Source: an uncultured Thermoplasmatales archaeon
GTDB lineage: Archaea; Thermoplasmatota; E2; UBA202; DSCA01
Length of the DNA stretch: 19,436 nucleotides
Reading direction: 5' to 3'
NCBI GenBank assembly: GCA_964514975.1
Contig: CAZESS010000028.1
Coordinates: 1 to 19,436, forward strand
Position numbers and translations under genes: made by a program. Shown here piece by piece: positions 3,368-16,498 of the stretch; position 1 is the first letter of the stretch; each line of letters opens with the position of its first letter. The notes below the pieces were generated by a model. The model was not told the DNA's origin. It saw nothing but the letters and a program-made list of their open reading frames with translations, and did no database searches.

Positions 3368-3379
3368 CCGGTGCTGCAG

Positions 3380-3394
3380 AAAAACGTTCTTATA
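3380..3394 (+). promoter_or_regulatory. Putative BRE/TATA promoter of the larA-like gene
   Basis: AAAAACG-TTCTTATA ending about 21 nt before ATG 3416. No SD, so geometry fits a leaderless transcript. Confidence 0.5.
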
Positions 3395-3415
3395 GCCAGC
3401 CCGGCATACAAACCC

Positions 3416-4669
3416 ATGAAGGTCGACCTGCCCTATGGAAAAGGCTCGCTTGAGGCGGACATTCCCGACGGCAACCTCATAGACGTCGTGTATCCCAACG
3501 AGCTGGAGCCAGAAAGGCCGCCCGCCGAATACGTCAGGCATGCCCTGGGACATCCAATGGGCACACGGACCCTGAGCCAGCTGGCCGAGGCGGGCATGAC
3601 CGCGGCCATCGCCGTCGACGACAACACCCGTCCCTGTCCGACCTGGGAGATGCTGCCCCATGTCGTGGCGGAGCTCACCAGGCAGGGCGTGGACATGGAC
3701 GACATCACCGTCATCTTCGCGACGGGCACCCACCGCCCCGTCACCCATGAGGAGGCCAGGGAGCTGCTCGGCGCCGACTACGCCGACAGGCTCACCTACA
3801 CCAGCAACCGCTGCAAGCAGGACGACTTCACCTCGGTGGGAACCACCTCCCGCGGTACGCCGGTCCACGTCAACGACGCCTTTCTCGAGGCAGATCTCCA
3901 GATCCTGCTCGGCGACGTCGAAATACATTATTTTGCGGGCTACGGCGGCGGCCGGAAGAGCATCCTCCCCGGCATGTGCAGCTACGAGACCATCCAGGAC
4001 AACTACACCACCAACTTTTTCGATGTCAATTCAAGGCCGGGCAAGCTCGACGGCAACCCCATGTACGAAAACATGACCGAGGCCGCCCGCCTCACCCAGC
4101 CGGACTTCTGCCTCAACGTCGTCCAGAACCCACGGCATGAGCTCGTGGGCGCCTACGCCGGCGACTTCGACCTCGTGCTCCGCAAAGGAGCCGCCGACAT
4201 CGACCGCATGTTCAAGGTCGAGGTGCCCGAGCAGGCGGACGTGGTCGTCACCGCCGCCGACGGCGCACCCCACGACGTCAACCTCTACCAGGCATACAAG
4301 GCCATCCATCTCGCGCTCAACGTCGTCAAACCCGGCGGCGCCATCGTCCTCGCCGCCCGGTGCCCGGACGGCCACGGGTCGCAGCCCTACCATGACTGGA
4401 TGAAACGATATGACACCCGCGAGGAAATGCAGGAGCAACTCATGGAGGAGTTCGTGCCCGGCGGCCACAAGGCCTACTACCATATCAAGGCGCTGGAGCA
4501 GGCCGACTTTTACATCGTCTCAGACATGGACCACGACATGCTCCGCGACGTGTTCCGGATGCAGGTCTACAATGACATCAACGAGGCACTGCGGCAAGCA
4601 TTCGCCGACCAGGGAGACGATGCCTCCGTGCTTGCCATCCCCCGGGGCACGACCACGCTCCCCGATTAG
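3416..4669 (+). CDS. larA: LarA-family nickel-pincer (NPN)-dependent 2-hydroxyacid racemase/epimerase (DUF2088)
   Basis: Motifs DDNTRP, ATGTHR, HYFAGYGGGRKSILPG, NLYQAYKA and CPDGHG. Start MKVDLPYG is typical of the family. Substrate unknown. Confidence 0.85.
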   Translation: MKVDLPYGKGSLEADIPDGNLIDVVYPNELEPERPPAEYVRHALGHPMGTRTLSQLAEAGMTAAIAVDDNTRPCPTWEMLPHVVAELTRQGVDMDDITVIFATGTHRPVTHEEARELLGADYADRLTYTSNRCKQDDFTSVGTTSRGTPVHVNDAFLEADLQILLGDVEIHYFAGYGGGRKSILPGMCSYETIQDNYTTNFFDVNSRPGKLDGNPMYENMTEAARLTQPDFCLNVVQNPRHELVGAYAGDFDLVLRKGAADIDRMFKVEVPEQADVVVTAADGAPHDVNLYQAYKAIHLALNVVKPGGAIVLAARCPDGHGSQPYHDWMKRYDTREEMQEQLMEEFVPGGHKAYYHIKALEQADFYIVSDMDHDMLRDVFRMQVYNDINEALRQAFADQGDDASVLAIPRGTTTLPD

Positions 4670-5223: not shown

Positions 5224-7485
5224 TTACGGGGCGAAGCTGGCCGTCCATTCGGGGCGCGCCGGCGGACTGTCGAGCATGTCCATCCAGCTCTCATCGGTGA
5301 GCCTCGCAGCGACGGGCTGCTTGAACTCATAGTAGCTAAACACCGGCCCGGCACCGGCCATCACGGTGCCATCGGGCAGCATATATGCGACGATGACAAG
5401 GTCGGCGTAGCCGACCGCCTCCTCGAGACACTGGCCGGTGTTGCCATCGGTGTGCACGTCGGCCACCATTGGCAGGCGGCGTCCCTCCTCGTTGACGCCG
5501 TCCATCGTCCGGTTGAGCGAACGAACGAACGAGCCAAGGAACTGCTCATCCGCGCTGTCAAACAGGGTGCCCTCCAGCTCCTTCGCTGCCAGCTCAAACA
5601 GCCGGTCGAGCATCCCGTGCAGCGCGTCGAGCCGCTCGCTGCCGTTATCGTCGAGCACGCCAAAAGAGGCGAGACCCTGCCGGGTCATGTTCACCAGCGA
5701 CCGAAGCCGCATGTACAGCCGGGGCACCGGTTCAACATAGCCGGGCGCCTCCATAACCCCCGTCAGCACCGGGGTTGTGCTCTGCTTCGCATACAGGATG
5801 GTGTCATGCCGGAGCTGCGTCCACGAGGCCAGCGCTGCATTGAGCTGCTTGTCCCGCCATGCCTCCGTGGCCATAAACGAGGGGTAGCCCTCGCCGTAGC
5901 CGTCCAGCAGCGGCCGCAGCGCATACAGCCAGCTCCAGTACAGGTTGCGGTTCCACCCGGTAACGTTGAAGCCGTCGAACATGTCGCGGAGCATCCCGAG
6001 CTGCCCGTCGTAGCTGCCGTTCACGCCCGCATAGTCGGTATCGCCGTCATCGCGCAAAATGCTCTCCGCTCTGTCCGAGCCCAGCACCGCCATCACGTCC
6101 AGCCCGCGGGGGAAACACCGCGCCGGCCCGCCCATCGTCATCTCCACGGTGAACGGCCACATGCTGCTGTTATCCTCAATGCTGCCGTTGTACATGCCCA
6201 CCGCCGGGGAGACCAATTGCTGGAACATGTAGCTGTCCGGCACAAAGCGCTGCCCCATGAACCGGAGGCCGGCCGTCTTCGCGAGCACCTCGTCGAGCCG
6301 CTCAGCGGTAAACGGCGGCGCTATGCTACACTGGCCGGTTCCGCCATAGATGCGCGGGCCCGGCAACTGCGCCAGATGCCCCTTGAGCTCCTGGAGCCGT
6401 GTGACGTTGACCAGCAATGACGCGTTGAAGCTGCTGCCATAGGTCTCGTTGAGGCAGCCCAGATAGTCATGGGGCGTCAAATCATCGGCGGTGCCCACGA
6501 AAAACGAGGTAACGGCGTAGATGCGCTGCCAGACAGCCCATCCCGTCTCGCTACCTATCGATACCTGCGGCAATCCGGTGGCGATGAGCGCTGCCTGCAC
6601 CGTCGCAACCGTCGCATCTCGCTCCGACACCAGATAGGGCTGCGCCGGGCCATGCGGGGTGCCGCCCCTGAGCAAAAACGCCATCCTGCCGTACCACATC
6701 AGCGCGCGGAAATAGCGCTGCAGCGCAGGCGAGGACGTGTAATGTCCCCGGGGCACATACTGCGAGTAGTCCTCCCGGTAGCCAAAAATCTCGCTGTCAT
6801 GATAGCCGTCATGGGCAGCGATGTGCTCGAGCTCTCCGTCGACCATGTCCGCCACGCTCGCCGGTATCCCCCCGGCATCTCTGTCGAGCAGCCGGACGGC
6901 GACGGTGAAAAAGGCCAGGTTGCGCCGCGCCGCCTCCCGCAGCGTGGCGTTGCCAAAGCGTTCGTATTGCGCTCTCGCATGCTCGGCCATCGCCAGGCTG
7001 AGATTGGCGATGTCGTCATAGAACACCTGCTCCTCTATCCCTTTGAGCAACTGGCTGAACTGCACATGGTAGAGATGCAGCAGGGTGTCGCTCGTCACAA
7101 AAATCGGCAATCCCATCCGCTGCACCCGGCGATAGGAAACGCTGATGTCGCCCACGGCGCCATCGTCCACCACGACGAAGCCATTGCGCCGGAGCAACCC
7201 ACGCTGCTCTCCCGTGAGATGAAATGCCCCCTCGACCGTCTCGAGGTTTTCGATGTCAGCGAGGTCGAGCGGCAGCTCATAGGAGGGAGCGGAGGCGTTG
7301 ATGGTCGCACCCTCATTGCGGTACATGCTCGCCATCGCGGTCTGCGGGTCATCGCCCGCCGCAGCAGACATGGAGGGAATGCTGATAACCTGCACGTCTC
7401 GCTCCGCGGTCAGACAGCCGCTCAGCGCGCTGGCCATGAAGACCGCGACGATAAGCACCACCATTGGTTTTTTCATGTCTCTCAT
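5224..7485 (-). CDS. DUF3160 family secreted lipoprotein
   Basis: Signal peptide MKKPMVVLIVAVFMASA followed by lipobox LSGC. Family motifs DYSQYVPRGHYT, LRHDTILYAKQS, GYVEPVP, ADVHT, GPVFSYYEF and RLTDESW. Start could be 7485 or 7476. Confidence 0.85.
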   Translation of the reverse strand: MRDMKKPMVVLIVAVFMASALSGCLTAERDVQVISIPSMSAAAGDDPQTAMASMYRNEGATINASAPSYELPLDLADIENLETVEGAFHLTGEQRGLLRRNGFVVVDDGAVGDISVSYRRVQRMGLPIFVTSDTLLHLYHVQFSQLLKGIEEQVFYDDIANLSLAMAEHARAQYERFGNATLREAARRNLAFFTVAVRLLDRDAGGIPASVADMVDGELEHIAAHDGYHDSEIFGYREDYSQYVPRGHYTSSPALQRYFRALMWYGRMAFLLRGGTPHGPAQPYLVSERDATVATVQAALIATGLPQVSIGSETGWAVWQRIYAVTSFFVGTADDLTPHDYLGCLNETYGSSFNASLLVNVTRLQELKGHLAQLPGPRIYGGTGQCSIAPPFTAERLDEVLAKTAGLRFMGQRFVPDSYMFQQLVSPAVGMYNGSIEDNSSMWPFTVEMTMGGPARCFPRGLDVMAVLGSDRAESILRDDGDTDYAGVNGSYDGQLGMLRDMFDGFNVTGWNRNLYWSWLYALRPLLDGYGEGYPSFMATEAWRDKQLNAALASWTQLRHDTILYAKQSTTPVLTGVMEAPGYVEPVPRLYMRLRSLVNMTRQGLASFGVLDDNGSERLDALHGMLDRLFELAAKELEGTLFDSADEQFLGSFVRSLNRTMDGVNEEGRRLPMVADVHTDGNTGQCLEEAVGYADLVIVAYMLPDGTVMAGAGPVFSYYEFKQPVAARLTDESWMDMLDSPPARPEWTASFAP

Positions 7486-8977: not shown

Positions 8978-8985
8978 TTTTATAT
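8978..8985 (+). promoter_or_regulatory. TATA box of the six-gene operon (may double as sRNA U-tract terminator)
   Basis: TTTTATAT ending about 21 nt before ATG 9007. No SD. Confidence 0.6.
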
Positions 8986-9006: not shown

Positions 9007-10434
9007 ATGGGATACGACACCGTCTACAGCGCCGGTGCCGGCCTCGACGACGACGTCATCAAGCGGCTCCATGTCATCATCCCGGATGGCGTGTCAACCC
9101 GGGAGGCCGACCGCGTCGTCTACGGCAAGGACTACTGGCCGATATCGCTGCGCTGGCTGCTCGACGGCCGGCTGCCCGCGCTCCCCGACGCCGTCATCTG
9201 GCCCGAAACCGCCGAGCAAATCGCCGGGGTCATGCGGCTGGCCAACAGGCATGGCTTCCCCGTGATACCCTACGGCGAGGGTTCCGGCGTCGTCGGCGGC
9301 GCCGTACCTGTGCAGGGCGGCGTGATGCTCGACATGCGCCGGATGCACGACATCCCGTCCATCGACGACCAGGGGCTCATGGCCAGGGTGCAGACCGGCA
9401 TCAACGGCATGACGCTGGAACGGGAGCTCAACCGCGCCGGCTACACCCTCGGGCACATCCCCCAGTCGCTGCACTGCTCGAGTCTGGGCGGCTGGATTGC
9501 CTGCCGCGCCGCCGGACAGTTCTCCACCAAATACGGCAAGATAGAGGACATGCTCATCGCGCTCGAGGCGGTGCTCCCCGACGGTACCGTCATCCGCTCC
9601 CGACCGGTGCCCCGCACCTCCACGGGCCCACGGGTCGAGCGGCTCATGCTCGGCAGCGAGGGCACCCTGGGCGTCGTCACCGAGGCAACGCTCAAGATAT
9701 GGCCATATCCGGAGCGCCGCGCATTGCACGCCTACACCTTCGACGACATCGCCGATGCATTGGAGGCGACCAGGCATATCATGCGGAAAAACGTCTACCC
9801 GGCGGTGATGCGCATCTACGACGAACACGAAACCCTGCGCCACTTCAACGTCAAGCATCGATGCATGCTCATCCTGATAATGGAGGGCGACCCTGACCTC
9901 CTCGACCTCGAGGAAGCCATCGCAGCCAAAATGTGCACACGCTTCAACGGCAATGACACGGGTACGGCGCCGGCGGAGCGATGGCTGGAGACCCGGTTCA
10001 CGGTTAAGGAGTCATCGGAGTTCACCCCCCGCGGCTTCATCTTCGACACCGTCGAGATATCCGCGGGATGGCGCAACGCATTGGAGACCTACCACGCAGT
10101 CATCGAGGCCATGCAGCAGATACCGGGCGTCGTCGTCGCCTCCGGGCATGCCTCCCATTTTTATCCGCAGGGCGTCTGCTTCTATTTCACCTTCGGCGGC
10201 CTGCCCCGCAAACAGACGCCCTACGAGTTCTACCGGGCCGTGTGGGATACCATCATGGCAGCCTGCCTCGAGCACGAGGGCTCCATCAGCCACCATCACG
10301 GCATCGGCATCATCAGGCAGCGCTGGCTCCCGGACGAGCTCGACGGCCGCCTGCACATGCTCCGCCGGATAAAGCACGCGCTCGACCCCAACCGGGTGAT
10401 GAACCCGGGTAAAATGGGAGGTGACGATGGCTAG
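9007..10434 (+). CDS. FAD-linked oxidase (VAO/PCMH family), alkyl-dihydroxyacetonephosphate synthase (AGPS)-like
   Basis: PYGEGSGVVGG, GHIPQSLHCSSLGGWIACRAAG..STKYGKIED, PRTSTGP..GSEGTLGVVTEAT, HFYPQGVCFYFTF, SISHHHGIG and LDPNRVMNPGK. The HHH triad and PRxSTGP match the AGPS branch; GlcD/D-LDH typically have GEHG. Confidence 0.8.
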   Translation: MGYDTVYSAGAGLDDDVIKRLHVIIPDGVSTREADRVVYGKDYWPISLRWLLDGRLPALPDAVIWPETAEQIAGVMRLANRHGFPVIPYGEGSGVVGGAVPVQGGVMLDMRRMHDIPSIDDQGLMARVQTGINGMTLERELNRAGYTLGHIPQSLHCSSLGGWIACRAAGQFSTKYGKIEDMLIALEAVLPDGTVIRSRPVPRTSTGPRVERLMLGSEGTLGVVTEATLKIWPYPERRALHAYTFDDIADALEATRHIMRKNVYPAVMRIYDEHETLRHFNVKHRCMLILIMEGDPDLLDLEEAIAAKMCTRFNGNDTGTAPAERWLETRFTVKESSEFTPRGFIFDTVEISAGWRNALETYHAVIEAMQQIPGVVVASGHASHFYPQGVCFYFTFGGLPRKQTPYEFYRAVWDTIMAACLEHEGSISHHHGIGIIRQRWLPDELDGRLHMLRRIKHALDPNRVMNPGKMGGDDG

Positions 10435-11611
10435 CATGCGGAAAAAATACGGCTGGGTCATGGACGCGATGTCCAACGCCGGCATGGCCACAAAGGCGGC
10501 CGCATTGAAACAGTTCCTCCGGGGCAAAAAACAGTACCTGCCACAAAAAAACACCAGCGCCGACCTCGACGAGGTCATCAAATGCGCGCTCTGCCCCAAC
10601 ATGTGCAAGTTCGACTGCCCCGTGCTCGCCGCGGCGCAAAACGACGCCACGTCGCCATCGGGCAAGGCACGCGTCGCCTATTTCCTGGAAACCGACCGCC
10701 TTGATACAGATGACGCGGTCGAGCTGATGTACGCCTGCTGCAACTGCGACGCCTGCCAGCAATGGTGCCCATTTGATTTCTCCGCCGGGGACATCCTCCG
10801 CGGCGTCCGCGCCGACCTCGCCGGGCAGCAGCGGGCGCCACCGGCGGCCATGGACCTGCACCGTCGCCTCCAGGAACAGCACGTGCTCCACGACCGACAG
10901 GTGCAGCCCACCGGTGCAACGCAGGGCGACGTCCTCTACTTCATGGGATGCGAGGTCGCCGGACGGCACCCCGCCATCGCCGTCGCCATGCAGGAGCTCC
11001 TCGACGACGGATACACGATGCTCCCCGAGGAATGGTGCTGCGGCGCCCCGCTCTACACCCTCGGGTTCGACGACACCTTCAAAGAGTTCGCCCGGCACAA
11101 CGCCGCTGCTATTCAAAAAAGCGGCTGCAGCACCCTGGTGTGCAGCTGCCCGACCTGCACCCACATGTTCCGGGATATCTATCCATCCATCGGCGTCGCC
11201 ATCGAGGCAGAAGTGCAGCACAGCACCGAGTACCTGCTCCGCCGCGCCAACGAGGGAGCACTCCCGCTCGCCCCGCTCGACCGTACGGCCGTCTACCATG
11301 ACCCCTGCACGCTCGCCCGCACGCTCGAGATAACAGCGGCACCACGGGAGCTCCTCCGCCGCGCTGGCGTAACCATCCGCGAGGCATACTACGCCGGCGC
11401 GGACACGGATTGCTGCGGACGCGGCGGCTCCCTGGGCACGATGCAGCCCGACCTCGCCGCGGCGATAACACGACGGCGCATCCAGGAGCTCCACCGGGCC
11501 AGCGAGACGATCATAACCGCCTGCCCCACCTGCAAAAGCGCCTTCACGGGCGAGAGCGCCCATGTGCAGGACATCACCGAGATACTCCGCGAGGCACGGG
11601 AGCGCATATGA
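10427..11611 (+). CDS. Fe-S oxidoreductase subunit with 2x[4Fe-4S] and two CCG domains (GlpC/GlcF/HdrD-like)
   Basis: CALCPNMCKFDCP, CCNCDACQQWCP, FMGC..WCCG..CPTC and YHDPC..DCCGRGG..TACPTC. SD GGAGGTGA at 10417-10424. Start 10427 or 10436. Confidence 0.85.
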   Translation: MASMRKKYGWVMDAMSNAGMATKAAALKQFLRGKKQYLPQKNTSADLDEVIKCALCPNMCKFDCPVLAAAQNDATSPSGKARVAYFLETDRLDTDDAVELMYACCNCDACQQWCPFDFSAGDILRGVRADLAGQQRAPPAAMDLHRRLQEQHVLHDRQVQPTGATQGDVLYFMGCEVAGRHPAIAVAMQELLDDGYTMLPEEWCCGAPLYTLGFDDTFKEFARHNAAAIQKSGCSTLVCSCPTCTHMFRDIYPSIGVAIEAEVQHSTEYLLRRANEGALPLAPLDRTAVYHDPCTLARTLEITAAPRELLRRAGVTIREAYYAGADTDCCGRGGSLGTMQPDLAAAITRRRIQELHRASETIITACPTCKSAFTGESAHVQDITEILREARERI

Positions 11612-13362
11612 ACGACCGGGCGCTCAGGAAAAAGGTCATGCGGGCGATCCGCCATATCCGGCCTGCCATAGAGGTGTCGGTCGACGACGGCATCATCTCA
11701 CTCGACGGCAACGCATCCTCATACAACGAATACCTCGAGGCAGGCAGAGCCGCGGGGCGCATCGCCGGGGTTGACGGCGTCGTCAACGACCTTTCATATC
11801 CCGGGAAACCCGAGCCATGCACGCCCGAGGGAAACGGCGAGACCGTCGCAACCGCGGACGTGGTCATCGTCGGCGGTGGGGTCACCGGCTGTATGATCGC
11901 CCGGGAGCTCTCCCGCTACGACCTCGACATCATCCTGGTTGAAAAAGAACCCGACGTCGCCTGTGGGGCCACCAAGGCCAACAACGCCATGGTGCACACG
12001 GGCATCGGCGAACCGACGGGCACACTCAAGCAGCAGCTCTGCATAGAGGGCCACCGGATGTACCCGCGTCTCTGCGAGGAGCTCGACGTGCCCTACCATC
12101 AATGCGGCATGTGGATCGTGCTCACCCCTGCATCCTTTACCGGCCTGCCCGTTCCCGCCTGGCTCGCCACCCGGATTGGCAGACACCTGGTTCCCCAGGT
12201 GCTCCTGCGGCGGGCAAAAAAGCTCGGGCTGCCCATGGAACAGGTGAGCGTCGAGGAAGTGAAGCGCAGGGAGCCCCACATCACCGATGACGTCACCGCC
12301 GCCGTTTTTTCGCCGACCTACGGCGTCACCTGTCCCTACCGGCTGACCATCGCCCTGGCCGAAAACGCCGCTGACAACGGCGTAGACATCATGCTCAACA
12401 CAGCGGTGACCGACATCGACATTGGCAACGGCCATGTCACCGGCGTCGTCACCACCAACGGGCGCATCAAAACCTCCTGGATAATCAATGCAGCAGGGCT
12501 CTATGCCGACCGGGTCGCCGAGATGGCCGGCGCCCGCGAATACACCATCCATCCAAAGCGGGGCGCCATCGCGCTGTTCGACAGCCGCCACAATGGCTAC
12601 GTCAACCACTGCATGAGCCTCCTGCGCTTTCCCCGCCGGGAGCACTACAAGGGAGGCGGCGTCATGATCACGGCGGACGGAAACATCCAGTGGGGGCCCA
12701 CCATGATGGAGACCCCCGATCGAGATGACACCGCCGTCACCGCCGACGACCTCGAAACGATATTTGGGAGATACCGGCCGTTGCTCCCCGACTTTCCAAC
12801 CCGGGACGTCATCACCTATTTCGCCGGATTGCGTGCATGCACGTTCACCGAGGACTTCGTCATCCGGCCCGCCCGCCACGTTGAAGGCTTCATCCACGTC
12901 GCCGGCATCCAGTCCCCCGGGCTGGCCGCCGCCCCCGCCGTCGCTGCACGAGCCATCAAAATGCTCAGAGAGCAGGGGCTTGCCCTGCCCGAAAAACCCG
13001 ATTTCGAGCCGCGCCGCCGTCGCCCGCCAGCATTCCACGAGAGCAGCAGCGAGGAACGACAGTGCCGCATCGAACGTGACAGCCGACATGGCCACGTGGT
13101 CTGCCGCTGCGAGCATGTCACCGAGGGCGACGTCATCGCAGCCATCCACCGGCCGGTTCCCGCCCGCACGGTCGACGCGGTCAAGCGGCGGACGCGCGCC
13201 GGGATGGGACGATGCCAGGGCGGCTTCTGCCTTCCAAGGATAGCGGCCATTATTGCCCGGGAGCACGACATCCCCCTCGAAGAAGTGAACAAAAACGGCG
13301 ACGGCTCCTATCTCTTCATAGGGCGGGCGAAAAGCCTGCTGGAGGCCGACCATGCAGGCTGA
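11608..13362 (+). CDS. glpA: FAD-dependent glycerol-3-phosphate dehydrogenase-like protein (GlpA/LhgO family) with N-terminal BON domain and C-terminal BFD-like [2Fe-2S] domain
   Basis: VIVGGGVTG, ATKANNAMVHTG, INAAGLYAD, GIQSPGL and CRCEHVTEG..RTRAGMGRCQGGFC. The first ~62 aa fit BON (IEVSVDDGIISLDG..AGVDGVVNDL). ATGA overlap with the upstream stop. Confidence 0.8.
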   Translation: MNDRALRKKVMRAIRHIRPAIEVSVDDGIISLDGNASSYNEYLEAGRAAGRIAGVDGVVNDLSYPGKPEPCTPEGNGETVATADVVIVGGGVTGCMIARELSRYDLDIILVEKEPDVACGATKANNAMVHTGIGEPTGTLKQQLCIEGHRMYPRLCEELDVPYHQCGMWIVLTPASFTGLPVPAWLATRIGRHLVPQVLLRRAKKLGLPMEQVSVEEVKRREPHITDDVTAAVFSPTYGVTCPYRLTIALAENAADNGVDIMLNTAVTDIDIGNGHVTGVVTTNGRIKTSWIINAAGLYADRVAEMAGAREYTIHPKRGAIALFDSRHNGYVNHCMSLLRFPRREHYKGGGVMITADGNIQWGPTMMETPDRDDTAVTADDLETIFGRYRPLLPDFPTRDVITYFAGLRACTFTEDFVIRPARHVEGFIHVAGIQSPGLAAAPAVAARAIKMLREQGLALPEKPDFEPRRRRPPAFHESSSEERQCRIERDSRHGHVVCRCEHVTEGDVIAAIHRPVPARTVDAVKRRTRAGMGRCQGGFCLPRIAAIIAREHDIPLEEVNKNGDGSYLFIGRAKSLLEADHAG

Positions 13363-14587
13363 CGTCGCGGTCATCGGCGGCGGCCCCGCCGGCCTCGCAG
13401 CCGCCCTGGAAGCAGCGGAGCACGCCGACACCGTTGTCCTGCTGGAGCGAGACAGAGAGCTCGGCGGCATCCTGCCCCAGTGCATCCACCACGGCTTCGG
13501 GAACTTCATCTTCGGCGAAAGGTGGACCGGGCCGGAATACGCGCAGCATTACATCGACCGCGTCCACGCATCAGCCATCGACGTGATGACCGACACCATG
13601 GTGCTTGACATAGCTACTGACAGGACGATCACCGCGGTCAACCCCGCCAGGGGCTTATTCACCGTCAAAGCCCAGAGCATCGTGCTCGCTATGGGCTGCC
13701 GGGAGCGCACCCGGAGTCAGATACGGCTCCCCGGGCCACGGCCTGCCGGCATCTACACCGCCGGGACGGCGCAGCGCCTCATCAACATCGAGGGCATGAT
13801 GCCCGGCCGCCGCGCGGTCATCGTCGGCTCCGGCGACGTCGGCCTCATCATGGCACGCCGCCTCACCTGGGAGGGCGCCACCGTTGAGGGCGTCTACGAG
13901 ATCATGCCCCATTCCGGCGGCCTGACACGCAACATTGTCCAGTGCCTCCACGACCATGACATCCCCCTGCACCTTGGCCACACCGTCACCGACATCGCTG
14001 GCACCAGGCGGGTGGAGGCCGTCACCGTCACCCGGGTCGACGGTGACATGCAGCCCCTGTCCGGCACCGAGCGTAAAATTCTCTGCGACACGCTCATCCT
14101 CGCCGTCGGCCTCATCCCCGAAAACGAGCTCTCCAGAGATGCAGGCATCAGCCTCGACCCGACAACGGGCGGCCCGGTCGTCGACCAGCACATGGAAACC
14201 ACGCAGCCCGGCATCTATGCCTGCGGCAACGTCGTCCACGTCCACGACGTCGTCGACGACGTCACCATCGCGGCGCAGACCGCCGGACGACATGCTGCCC
14301 GGGCAGCCGGCGACCGGCAGCCCGGCCATGCCGCACCGGTGCAGCCGGGCCGGAACGTCAGCTACGTCGTCCCCCAGCGCATCACCGCCGCCGACACCGA
14401 CGTCCGCTTCTACCTCCGGGTGCAACGGGAGCAGCACGACGCCGTGGTCACGGTTTACGGGGACGGCGACCTGCTCCACGAGCAGCGGGAGCGGGTCGTC
14501 CGGCCGCCCGAGATGGTCACGCTGACGATGCCCGCCGAAAAACTCCAGCATATCAAAAACATCAATGTCGAGGTGCACGATGGATAA
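13352..14587 (+). CDS. NAD(P)/FAD-dependent oxidoreductase (pyridine nucleotide-disulphide family), usual GlpA partner
   Basis: VIGGGPAGLAAA, GGILPQCIHHGFG, LAMGCRER, VGSGDVGLIMARR and GIYACGNVVHVHD. SD GGAGG. 11-nt overlap with the glpA-like gene. Confidence 0.88.
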   Translation: MQADVAVIGGGPAGLAAALEAAEHADTVVLLERDRELGGILPQCIHHGFGNFIFGERWTGPEYAQHYIDRVHASAIDVMTDTMVLDIATDRTITAVNPARGLFTVKAQSIVLAMGCRERTRSQIRLPGPRPAGIYTAGTAQRLINIEGMMPGRRAVIVGSGDVGLIMARRLTWEGATVEGVYEIMPHSGGLTRNIVQCLHDHDIPLHLGHTVTDIAGTRRVEAVTVTRVDGDMQPLSGTERKILCDTLILAVGLIPENELSRDAGISLDPTTGGPVVDQHMETTQPGIYACGNVVHVHDVVDDVTIAAQTAGRHAARAAGDRQPGHAAPVQPGRNVSYVVPQRITAADTDVRFYLRVQREQHDAVVTVYGDGDLLHEQRERVVRPPEMVTLTMPAEKLQHIKNINVEVHDG

Positions 14588-14936
14588 CGTCATCTGTATC
14601 GAATGCCCCCTGGGCTGCGAAATATCCGTCGAGCAGCGCAACGGCGAGCTATTCATCACGGGCAACGCCTGCCCCCGCGGCGAACGCTACGCCATGCAGG
14701 AGGCCACCGATTCCCGGCGGGTGCTCACCACCACCGTGTTCATCCAGGGCGCCATGCATCCCATGCTGCCCGTGAAAAGCGCCCGGCCGCTGCCCAAAGA
14801 CCGGATAGACGAATGTCTCCAAACGCTTGCGACCGTGTCCGTGACAGCGCCGGTGCAGTGCGGCGACAGCGTATGCAGCGACATCTGCGGCACCGGCATC
14901 GACATCGTCGCAACCCGGACCATGGAGGCACCATGA
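14580..14936 (+). CDS. DUF1667 family small Cys-rich (CxxCPxGC) metal/Fe-S protein
   Basis: CIECPLGC..GNACPRGERYA..RVLTTTV..LPVKS..GIDIVATR. SD GAGGTG. Overlaps both neighbours. Confidence 0.88.
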   Translation: MDNVICIECPLGCEISVEQRNGELFITGNACPRGERYAMQEATDSRRVLTTTVFIQGAMHPMLPVKSARPLPKDRIDECLQTLATVSVTAPVQCGDSVCSDICGTGIDIVATRTMEAP

Positions 14937-16498
14937 AACACGTCATGGCCATCGACGCCGGCACCACGGGCATCCGTGCCATCATCTTCAACCAGGAAAG
15001 CCAGGCGGTATCGCATGCCTACGAGACCATCACGCTGCGGCAGCCCCATCCGGGCTGGAGCGAGCAGGATCCCCGGGAGGTCTGGGAGACATGCCGGCGG
15101 GTCATGCACACCGCGCTCACCGACAGCGACCTGGCAGCAAGGGACATCGAAACCATCGGCGTGGCCACGCTCCGCTCGACCAACCTGCTGTGGCGCAGCG
15201 ACGGAACCCCGCTTTCCAATGTCATCACCTGGCATGACACCCGGACCGCCGGGCTATGCCGGGAGATGGACGGCCAAGCCACGATACGGGCCGCCCGGGG
15301 GCTGGGCCACGCCGCCAGAGCGCTCTCCCGCGTCTGGCCGGGGCTGCGCCGCGGCCGCACCGCCGGCCGGCTCATCACCGCCTCCCATCTCTCGTTCACG
15401 CCCGCATCGGCGCTGGCGCACACGGCATGGCTGCTCGACAACGTCAACGATGCGCGGTATCTCGCCCGGCGGGATGAGCTGCGCTGCGGCACCATGGACA
15501 CCTGGCTCCTCTGGAATCTCACCGCCGGCGAGACCTATGCGACGGACACGTCGAACGCAAGCGCCACCGGCATGTACGACCCCTACCGGCTGCAGTGGAA
15601 CTCGCTGTTCCTGGACACCTTCGACATCCCCGCGGCGGTGCTGCCCGAGGTCCGGGACACCGCCGACAGGTACGGCCATATCGACAGGGATATCCTGGGG
15701 CGGGAGATACCCATCACCGGGGTGGTCGCCGACCAGCAGGCGGCGCTCTTCGGCGAGGCATGCTTCAAGCCGGGCGAGGTGAAATGCACCAGCGGCACGG
15801 GAACCTTCATCGACATGAACGTCGGCGACTGCCCGGCTGCGTCGCTGCACCGGCTGGTGCCCATGATCGCCTGGAGCATCAATGGCAGGGCTACCTACAT
15901 GCTGGAGGGCATGATAAACACGAGCGGTGCAGCCGTCCAATGGCTCAGGGACAACCTGGGTGTCATCGACCATGTCGACCAGTCATGCCAGATGGCGCAG
16001 TGCGTCGACGACGCTGGAGACATCTATTTTGTGCCGGCCTTCACGGGTCTCTCCTCACCCTACTGGGACCCGCATGCATGCGGCGTCGTCGTGGGATTGC
16101 ATCGCTCCACGCAAAAGGAGCACATCGTCCGCGCCGTCCTGGAGGGCATCGTCTACCGGTGCCGGGACATCATGCTCTCGATGGAACGGGACGCCGGCCT
16201 GCCCGTCCGCTCCATCACGGCCGACGGTGGTGCCTCAAAAAACGATTTCCTCCTCCAGTTCATGGCCGACATGCTCGACGTCCGGGTTGAACGACCGGCG
16301 ATGCTCGACGGCACCGCGCTCGGCGCCGCCCACCTGGCAGGGCTGGCGGCCGACATATGGCAGCCTGACGAGCTCAGACTTCGTCATAGCACAGAGCAGG
16401 TCTTCGAGCCCTCAATGCCCCCGGAACGGCGGGAGCGCCTCTACCGTGGATGGCGCCGCGCCGTCGAAAAATCGTTCCGGTGGCGTCATTCGGCGTAG
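14933..16498 (+). CDS. FGGY-family glycerol kinase-like protein, GK5-like subtype
   Basis: AIDAGTTGIR, GWSEQDP, GTMDTWL, TDTSNASATG, ADQQAALFG, GTGTF, FVPAFTGL..PYWD and ADGGAS. SD GGAGG (14924-14928) and ATGA overlap. Extra basic/hydrophobic segment after WHDTR. Confidence 0.88.
   Translation: MKHVMAIDAGTTGIRAIIFNQESQAVSHAYETITLRQPHPGWSEQDPREVWETCRRVMHTALTDSDLAARDIETIGVATLRSTNLLWRSDGTPLSNVITWHDTRTAGLCREMDGQATIRAARGLGHAARALSRVWPGLRRGRTAGRLITASHLSFTPASALAHTAWLLDNVNDARYLARRDELRCGTMDTWLLWNLTAGETYATDTSNASATGMYDPYRLQWNSLFLDTFDIPAAVLPEVRDTADRYGHIDRDILGREIPITGVVADQQAALFGEACFKPGEVKCTSGTGTFIDMNVGDCPAASLHRLVPMIAWSINGRATYMLEGMINTSGAAVQWLRDNLGVIDHVDQSCQMAQCVDDAGDIYFVPAFTGLSSPYWDPHACGVVVGLHRSTQKEHIVRAVLEGIVYRCRDIMLSMERDAGLPVRSITADGGASKNDFLLQFMADMLDVRVERPAMLDGTALGAAHLAGLAADIWQPDELRLRHSTEQVFEPSMPPERRERLYRGWRRAVEKSFRWRHSA

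Follow-up and report, generated by a model that had tools for sequence, protein, structure and literature searches.

FngABC, an electron-bifurcating heterotrimer isolated from Pyrococcus furiosus and reported in October 2026, couples the oxidation of glycerol 3-phosphate (G3P) and reduced ferredoxin to the reduction of NAD+ (PMC13689815). Its FngA subunit is defined by a DAO-type domain (IPR006076) together with a BFD-like [2Fe-2S] domain (IPR007419), its FngB subunit is an FAD/NAD(P)-binding oxidoreductase, and its FngC subunit is defined by DUF1667 (PMC13689815). Here we describe an operon on a 19,436-nucleotide (nt) stretch of DNA from an uncultured Thermoplasmatales archaeon (assembly GCA_964514975.1, contig CAZESS010000028.1; the whole stretch is called the window below) in which six genes on the + strand, g1 to g6, span positions 9007-16498 and join an FngABC-type module (g3 to g5) to an AGPS-family flavoprotein (g1), a CCG iron-sulfur (Fe-S) protein (g2), and an FGGY kinase resembling glycerol kinase 5, or GK5 (g6). 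We propose, tentatively and as a possibility that falls short of probable, that the operon handles a C1-O-substituted glycerol instead of free glycerol, in catabolism or salvage and with an alkyl or acyl chain as the leading candidate substituent.

The locus shares with FngABC the three subunit types and an operon with an FGGY kinase, and it differs in the BON domain and the insert carried by g3, in the added AGPS-like flavoprotein and CCG protein, and in a kinase that is not a canonical GlpK. GlpABC, as found in Escherichia coli and haloarchaea, likewise has a GlpA-type subunit and a GlpC-like subunit with 2x[4Fe-4S] and two CCG stretches; however, GlpB is absent here, FngB and FngC stand in its place, and g1 is an additional flavoprotein. 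The families of the parts are known, and their combination is new to the literature that we searched with AGPS together with archaea, Asgard, ether lipid, DUF1667, and glycerol kinase, in which no description of the six-gene combination was found. Neither does the available part of a survey of archaeal glycerol metabolism mention the cluster (PMC11962113), and the available text of the FngABC paper mentions no AGPS-like partner, CCG partner, or BON domain, although its supplementary tables may list such contexts (PMC13689815).

If our model holds, the kinase domain of ACAD10 would carry out the same first reaction as the operon (alkylglycerol to alkyl-G3P) and AGMO would reach the same overall outcome (ether cleavage), whereas both belong to protein families unrelated to those of the operon, which encodes no oxygenase. 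AGMO requires O2 and tetrahydrobiopterin, and the FGGY kinase is not of the ACAD10 type. The cleavage of lignin beta-aryl ethers by LigD/LigEF/LigG resembles the model in its logic, as oxidation of an alcohol to a ketone activates the C-O ether bond, cleavage follows, and the reducing equivalents are recycled; unlike the operon, it involves unrelated proteins, glutathione chemistry, and an aromatic substrate. ACAD10 has been described as the mammalian alkylglycerol kinase (10.1101/2025.09.10.675409), and AGMO has been called the only known alkylglycerol-degrading enzyme (PMC7911779).

An AGPS-like flavoprotein with an iron-sulfur partner

The first gene, g1 (9007-10434, + strand), encodes a 475-amino-acid (aa) FAD protein with the FAD_binding_4 (Pfam, 133.7 bits) plus FAD-oxidase_C (120.8 bits) architecture of the vanillyl-alcohol oxidase (VAO) type, and AGPS is its nearest characterised relative. 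Its best relatives in the PDB by phmmer are the AGPS entries 2uuu (Dictyostelium, 2.5e-65) and 4bby (guinea pig, 1.8e-58), with mouse LDHD at 3.5e-39, and a profile built from 13 diverse g1 orthologues improves the AGPS match to 3.9e-88. A predicted structure of moderate quality (pLDDT 73) retrieved AGPS 4bby as the top Foldseek match (1.7e-34, TMq 0.68), with LDHD at 2.3e-25. At about 27% identity to AGPS, g1 shares the VAO-type fold and the active-site Arg, Tyr, and HHH: R269, Y393, and H429-H431 are invariant in the 13 orthologues and are aligned by HMMER to AGPS R419/R352, Y578/Y508, and the HHH at H615-617. Catalytic roles have been assigned to R352, Y508, and R447 of Dictyostelium AGPS (PMC3509576) and a role to His616/617 (PMC13019191), and PDB entry titles name Arg419His and Tyr578Phe mutants of AGPS. 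The initial annotation had called g1 AGPS-like, and it is that, not merely GlcD-like, both by sequence and by fold, with the Arg, Tyr, and HHH kept.

The second gene, g2 (10421-11611, + strand), begins with GTG, has in-frame ATGs at 10427 and 10436, and encodes a GlpC/HdrD-like iron-sulfur protein with a 2x[4Fe-4S] motif region and two CCG stretches (Pfam CCG 92.6 bits, Fer4_8, Fer4_17). Despite these matching domains, its scores against the NCBIfam GlpC models lie well below their cut-offs (106.5 against 278 and 89.6 against 279.9). In 14 of the 15 archaeal rows of its alignment (A2), the N-terminus is extended by a basic stretch of about 45 aa, which the Thermofilaceae locus L096 and all three bacterial rows lack.

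A pattern scan in which each species was represented by one genome found 549 loci encoding relatives; the wider counts below come from the best 80 of these, which are not independent, 38 being from Asgard archaea and all having been sampled via g1. The g2 gene adjoins g1 in 78 of the 80, in Asgard archaea, Thermoproteota, Chloroflexota, Bacillota, and others. AGPS is a stand-alone enzyme. Neither FAR nor GNPAT is among the genomic partners of g1, which are a kinase and a dehydrogenase. AGPS is also redox-neutral (PMC3509576), in contrast to the pairing of g1 with an Fe-S protein, and such a near-constant partner implies a net electron flow that a true AGPS would not need.

Homology to AGPS also suits a biosynthetic direction, in which G3P-type ether lipids would be made through exchange of acyl-DHAP (DHAP, dihydroxyacetone phosphate) with a fatty or isoprenoid alcohol and subsequent reduction by FngA running in reverse. 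AGPS homologues are counted in metagenome surveys as markers of ether-lipid synthesis (PMC11868695, PMC13159169), and a match to PcrB-type geranylgeranylglyceryl phosphate (GGGP) synthase is absent from all five genomes of the window's genus. However, acyl-DHAP would have no known source, as no match to a PlsC/GNPAT-type acyltransferase was found in the organism's own genome, which is 98.9% complete. Five NAD_binding_4 matches are weak and generic, the family occurs in 14 of 14 control genomes, and no fatty acyl reductase is evident. Sister genera have the cluster and GGGP synthase together, so there is no complementary pattern, and a kinase with a bifurcating oxidoreductase is a catabolic layout. 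We consider this direction very improbable, and the suggestion in the initial annotation that the pathway might run in reverse across the lipid divide is weakened by the missing acyltransferase match.

The distribution of GGGP synthase is an observation in its own right. Matches to the PcrB/GGGP-synthase family (PF01884, TIGR01768) occur in none of the five genomes of the window's genus, including its own (88-99% complete), and in all eight genomes of the family's other genera. The gene sits after a conserved 919-aa gene in three sister genera (loci L131-L133), and the corresponding slot in the window's genome (C23:21808-25582) holds an unrelated open reading frame (ORF), so the absence is not an assembly gap. 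The same genome has a gene resembling glycerol 1-phosphate dehydrogenase and eight UbiA-type prenyltransferases. A methanogen lipid-backbone idea was dropped, as a McrA match is absent from the genome.

A BON-FngABC module and a possible five-protein assembly

The next three genes fit FngABC. The g3 product (11608-13362, + strand) is a BON plus FngA/GlpA-type FAD and [2Fe-2S] subunit (Pfam DAO 234 bits, the BFD-like Fer2_BFD 58.2, BON 32.5), and alongside it are encoded an FngB-type pyridine-nucleotide-disulfide oxidoreductase that would serve as the FAD/NAD subunit (g4, 13352-14587, + strand; Pyr_redox_2 124.9 bits) and an FngC-type DUF1667 protein (g5, 14565-14936, + strand; 103.4 bits). As such, g3-g5 are predicted to form an FngABC-type ferredoxin/NAD bifurcating module.

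The BON domain of g3 (PF04972) scores 32.5 bits against a gathering score of 27 over residues 2-64, and in comparison with the canonical FngA of the same genome, described below, g3 is extended by 81 residues at its N-terminus and carries an insert of about 15 aa. Of the 18 loci in which g3 lies beside g1/g2, 17 have the BON segment (tblastn match from residue 23 or earlier); one locus, L078, was left out of the g3 alignment (A3) because its range contains a stop codon. In two bacterial loci, L068 (11356-14190) and L073 (5095-7908), the CCG protein, BON, and FngA are fused in frame into proteins of 944 and 937 aa. The metagenome-assembled genomes (MAGs) with these fusions are labelled Solirubrobacterales and Methylocystaceae. 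Its position in the fusions, with the CCG part on one side and the FngA part on the other, suggests that BON may be a docking element for g2 rather than proof of membrane binding, and for this reason, together with its 17 of 18 occurrences, its use as a membrane tag was down-weighted.

The fusion of the CCG protein to BON-FngA in two loci argues that g1-g5 could form a single multi-subunit flavin/Fe-S assembly. A complex prediction for g3 (A3) with g2 (A2) gave a score of 0.05 and a mark of 0.32 and was counted neither for nor against. The electrons that pass through g2 may come from g1, should this be a dehydrogenase that supplies the bifurcating module, or may be delivered to it, should g1 carry out a reductive C-O cleavage that acts as the high-potential acceptor, by analogy with Hdr-type enzymes.

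A GK5-like kinase without two of the glycerol contacts

The last gene, g6 (14933-16498, + strand), encodes a 521-aa FGGY kinase (Pfam FGGY_N and FGGY_C). Specificity for glycerol in GlpK is marked by R83, E84, Y135, D245, and F270 (PMC3245297), at which g6 reads R, S, A (no Tyr), D, and F. Aligned to glycerol kinases of solved structure, g6 shows a break at a segment that is 26 residues longer, and the QRET motif becomes LRST; both the insert and the residue changes are kept in 12 orthologues. The predicted structure of g6 (pLDDT 89.5) places the basic insert at residues ~116-150 as a helical hairpin (helices at 116-134, 136-140, and 142-150). The loss of glycerol-contact residues that had been proposed for the kinase is thus seen in g6 at E84 and Y135, although the alignment at position 135 is less certain across kinase subfamilies.

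The same departure recurs in 45 FGGY kinases encoded beside g1-g2 in 42 loci, where the E84 position holds Ser, Ala, Gly, Gln, Leu, or Thr in 41, Glu in three, and a gap in one, with R83 present in 44, W103 in 43, D245 in 45, and F270 in 33. An exhaustive HMMER search returned 150 representatives, and among those with an aligned Arg83, 89 are canonical (Glu84) and 37 are not. In many of the non-Glu84 kinases the W103-to-W segment has 56 or 66 residues, compared with 40, and names among ten of them include 'glycerol kinase 5-like [Styela clava]', 'putative glycerol kinase 5 [Phlebotomus argentipes]', and 'glycerol kinase 5 [Spirochaetota bacterium]'.

A tree of 136 kinases places g6, the kinases of L065, L078, L094, and L101, and GK5 proteins in a 36-row clade with an SH-like support of 96 (FastTree only, with no bootstrap, and with many rows of deviant composition), and the canonical kinases, including the GlpK of the same genome, fall outside it. 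The nearest ESM Atlas clusters of g6 also carry the glycerol kinase 5 name, and tree, protein names, and ESM Atlas together bear out the earlier description of the kinase as GK5-like. With the glycerol kinase 5 of animals and bacteria, g6 shares this clade, the lack of Glu at position 84, and, for many members, a longer segment after W103; the differences are an identity of 35-38% and an insert that is 10 residues longer in g6 than in the GK5 subclade. The available parts of the GK5 literature do not give its substrate, and one 2026 paper calls its role in systemic metabolism minimally characterised.

The initial annotation had also described three basic amphipathic segments in the encoded proteins. 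This stands for the kinase insert, whose hydrophobic moment (muH) of 0.74 is the maximum of g6 and whose net charge is +7. The g2 N-terminal extension (+6, muH 0.34) and the g3 insert (+5, muH 0.45) are basic, and their amphipathicity is not clear.

Canonical paralogues in the same genome

The organism's own genome also carries a canonical glpK-fngA-fngB-fngC operon (contig C12:28945-33515, minus strand), whose products are 43, 38, 45, and 39% identical to g6, g3, g4, and g5, respectively. The C12 FngA has no BON domain, and the C12 GlpK carries the REWYDF signature, with R, E, Y, D, and F at the five specificity positions where g6 departs from the pattern. This operon is the organism's ordinary glycerol route. 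Elsewhere (C19:1617-4101), a canonical GlcD-type flavoprotein followed by a CCG iron-sulfur protein is 29-30% identical to g1 and g2; the flavoprotein carries GHAGDGNLH and SGEHGIG motifs, and the pair is probably a D-lactate/glycolate-type dehydrogenase. Because these two loci already cover plain glycerol and plain 2-hydroxyacid oxidation, the window copies would do something else, and to judge from the comparison, the window operon is a diverged, specialised second copy.

These paralogues bear on the alternative of a variant free-glycerol catabolism, in which the kinase and FngABC would serve the usual use of glycerol and G3P, e.g., under other regulation, and g1/g2 would be a D-lactate, glycolate, or other 2-hydroxyacid dehydrogenase, acting for instance on methylglyoxal-derived D-lactate and sharing the electron-disposal module. 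GlcD-type plus CCG pairs are classical lactate/glycolate dehydrogenases. The best NCBIfam match of g1 is GlcD, below its cut-off, a gene resembling the lactate racemase LarA lies 4 kb upstream, and g6 scores 528.4 bits against the GlpK subfamily model NF000756, above the cut-off of 498. Against this, g6 misses the GlpK equivalog TIGR01311 (527 against 590.35), the E84 position is replaced in 41 of the 45 associated kinases counted above, g1 is closer to AGPS than to any lactate dehydrogenase, and canonical copies of both modules are already in the genome. We regard plain use of glycerol as improbable.

Conservation and distribution

Of 40 related genomes, 20 encode a g1 orthologue with at least 55% identity, with one fragment in addition; it occurs in 11 of the 12 genomes of the same family, in 8 of the 25 of a neighbouring family, and in one of another family of the class. 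Among 19 orthologous Thermoplasmatota loci, 12 are not cut by a contig end, and 11 of these have all six genes in the order of the window; the twelfth, from another family of the class, reads g1-g2-g3-g6. The seven contig-cut loci are collinear as far as their sequence extends. With the order kept in 11 of the 12 uncut loci, the six-gene grouping is more than chance.

Outside the class, g1 orthologues above 50% identity are labelled Theionarchaea, Promethearchaeota/Lokiarchaeota, Heimdall-, Hod-, and Hermodarchaeota, and Zixibacteria. In 64 of the wider loci the flank is long enough for a count of neighbours within 9 kb; 43 of them have an FGGY kinase at this distance, 15 have g4, and 13 have g5. 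The full or near-full six-gene set is found again in Njordarchaeota, Thermofilaceae, Thermoproteota, and Dehalococcoidia/Chloroflexia MAGs. The neighbourhood survey found the six-gene association, on which the initial annotation had staked its proposal, conserved in other genomes, and the similar neighbourhood that it had suggested for Archaeoglobus has a counterpart in an Archaeoglobales MAG (L101), where g1 and g2 are followed further on by a GlpK-like kinase. The gene association is genuine, and many anaerobic archaea and bacteria share it.

A distinct operon form is found in Asgard archaea (L072:8319-15640 and about 24-27 other Asgard loci), in which a 494-aa protein, g1, g2, and a XylB-like FGGY kinase are followed by an alpha/beta hydrolase and a MazG-like protein. 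The 494-aa protein has no Pfam match, and a weak ESM Atlas lead points to prenyltransferase/terpene-cyclase alpha-alpha toroids (score 0.90, low recognition). The XylB-like kinase of this form has Arg in the Y135 column.

Substrate clues and a proposed model

Besides the AGPS kinship of g1 and the opened pocket of the kinase, several neighbourhoods were counted in favour of a lipid-like, C1-substituted glycerol. A DAGK_cat/YegS-type lipid kinase replaces the FGGY kinase in L090, L068, and L073 (these three loci also carry a GntR/UTRA regulator), the alpha/beta hydrolase follows the kinase in 24 Asgard loci, and an acyl-CoA-synthetase-type gene lies upstream in L104. From the kinase side, a search of metagenome contigs with a spirochaete GK5-like protein gave 12 loci, and the six closest (L134-L139) are arranged as acyltransferase-HAD-kinase-acyltransferase or parts thereof, as far as the contigs extend, with acyltransferases of the PlsC type (PF01553) and a HAD hydrolase gene immediately 5' of the kinase gene. 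By their gene content, these six loci look like a glycerolipid salvage or assembly cassette and give this branch of kinases a glycerolipid context.

Other neighbours fit a soluble polyol or ketose pathway, in which the kinase would phosphorylate a C4-C6 polyol or sugar (in effect a glycerol lengthened by carbon at C1), FngABC would oxidise the polyol phosphate to a ketose phosphate, and g1/g2 would be an ordinary FAD/Fe-S dehydrogenase acting on a DHAP-like ketose phosphate or a downstream hydroxy compound. In some bacterial loci, among them Dehalococcoidia, a class II aldolase lies directly 5' of g1 (L103, L110) and an SDR and a ferredoxin-like gene lie downstream (L102, L103), L083 and L085 (a Bacillota locus among them) carry an MFS_2 transporter, and GntR/UTRA regulators occur in four loci. 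The Asgard and Dehalococcoidia kinases score best against xylulokinase, autoinducer-2 (AI-2) kinase, and gluconokinase models, all below cut-off; an enlarged kinase pocket would fit a longer polyol as well as a lipid, and GlcD-type dehydrogenases normally have an Fe-S partner. Against a soluble substrate, g1 keeps the AGPS-specific HHH loop and Tyr and not the GlcD/LDHD His-His-Glu metal site that its C19 paralogue keeps, the DAGK_cat lipid-type kinases replace FGGY in three loci, and relatives of the window kinase are located with PlsC acyltransferases. No sugar transporter or aldolase stands beside the cluster in the window or in the 19 Thermoplasmatota loci, the latter having been searched only for the window's own flanking genes. 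We see a soluble polyol or sugar as a serious alternative substrate, albeit a rather unlikely one.

The earlier ether-lipid idea, generalised to C1-O-substituted glycerols, gives the most coherent single reading of the operon, and one that could well prove right though we stop short of calling it likely; ether-lipid salvage itself is a plausible member of several C1-substituted glycerols or polyols that fit. In such a pathway, the GK5-like kinase would phosphorylate the free primary hydroxyl of the substituted glycerol, for which it keeps the contacts to the phosphorylated end and to the carbon backbone and has lost two residues that close the pocket. BON-FngABC would then oxidise the secondary alcohol to a DHAP-type ketone and pass the electrons to NAD/ferredoxin, as in the P. 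furiosus complex. The AGPS-like flavoprotein would bind the 1-O-substituted DHAP and, by C1 carbanion/flavin-N5 chemistry of the AGPS type, remove or exchange the substituent, so that DHAP or a close derivative would enter central metabolism. Finally, the CCG iron-sulfur protein would link the AGPS-like flavin to FngA, the five redox proteins acting as one complex. The gene content, conservation, paralogy, residue patterns, g2-g3 fusion, and clade membership behind this model were observed directly, and the identity of the substrate, the way in which electrons pass through g2, and the chemistry at g1 are inferred.

A bolder version holds that g1-g5 are an undescribed five-protein flavin/iron-sulfur supercomplex able to break the ether bonds of glycerol in the absence of oxygen: the GK5-type kinase would form 1-O-alkyl-G3P, BON-FngABC would oxidise it to alkyl-DHAP, and the AGPS-derived subunit would expel the alcohol by flavin-N5 chemistry, with the CCG protein as a wire coupling this step to bifurcation. 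We consider this unlikely.

A number of observations weigh against a C1-substituted glycerol as the substrate. AGPS has an N-terminal extension, a gating helix, and a hydrophobic tunnel of C16 size. In g1, nothing corresponds to the N-terminal 90-160 residues of AGPS, the hidden Markov model alignment beginning at residue 162 of the guinea pig and 93 of the Dictyostelium enzyme, and the position of Dictyostelium R447, which is reported to matter for catalysis, holds a Ser, within an ESSEF segment where the similarity is weak. Since AGPS proper works redox-neutrally without an Fe-S partner, whereas g1 has one in nearly all loci, the chemistry of g1 probably differs from that of AGPS. The g3 gene is near g1 in only 16 of the 64 loci with enough flank, the kinases of the Asgard and Dehalococcoidia loci are XylB-like and lie outside the GK5 clade, and g1, g2, and g3 are all absent from the 12 spirochaete-type GK5 loci, whose two acyltransferases would equally suit plain G3P. 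The aldolase, SDR, transporter, and regulator neighbours of some bacterial loci suit soluble polyols or sugars. The organism's own genome has no acyl-CoA dehydrogenase, GDPD, or PlsC-type match, and with the first of these absent, released chains would not be open to beta-oxidation by the usual route. Many FngABC homologues, moreover, lack glycerol-related neighbours and have sugar kinases adjacent, and other polyols are their probable substrates (PMC13689815).

Operon layout and flanking genes

The window has a G+C content of 63%. With the chosen starts, the six genes overlap successively by 14, 4, 11, 23, and 4 nt, the size of the g1/g2 overlap varying with the choice among three possible g2 starts. 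A TATA-like box, TTTATATT (8978-8985, + strand), read from the sequence, lies 22 nt 5' of the g1 ATG at 9007 and is a probable promoter of a leaderless archaeal operon transcript. A search of sequencing runs returned no RNA run and one DNA run that contains 0.99 of the sequence words and may be the source sample. The ORF coordinates and this box agree with the earlier picture of six co-oriented, overlapping genes behind a TATA box, and Pfam agrees with the domains that had been assigned to all six proteins.

The upstream flank holds gyrA, the LarA-like gene, a response regulator, a DUF3160 gene, a nitroreductase, and PCNA, and downstream lies a convergent LeuRS gene. Since these neighbours are housekeeping or unrelated genes, the operon stands alone. 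The LarA-like gene (lactate racemase family; 3371-4669, + strand) is also found near the cluster in the related loci L033 and L034, and the DUF3160, nitroreductase, and PCNA genes intervene. The DUF3160 protein (5224-7485, - strand; 753 aa, 636.9 bits) is encoded beside the nitroreductase and PCNA genes in loci of the same genus as well.

Implications

The operon extends the FngABC family by a conserved five-subunit form in which an AGPS-family flavoprotein appears to have been recruited through a CCG wire. Its context of kinase, dehydrogenase, and Fe-S protein, without FAR or GNPAT, is a warning for the use of AGPS homologues as synthesis markers, as many such matches may act otherwise, perhaps in reverse. 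The g6 kinase links animal GK5 to prokaryotic relatives in lipid-related gene contexts. We know of no resolved route for the anaerobic degradation of ether lipids, and the operon is a concrete, testable candidate for such degradation without oxygen. If the supercomplex proposed above is real, it would be the first anaerobic route of ether-lipid breakdown, widespread in sediment archaea, including Asgard archaea, and in bacteria, and it would suggest that animal GK5 acts on a lipid and not on free glycerol.

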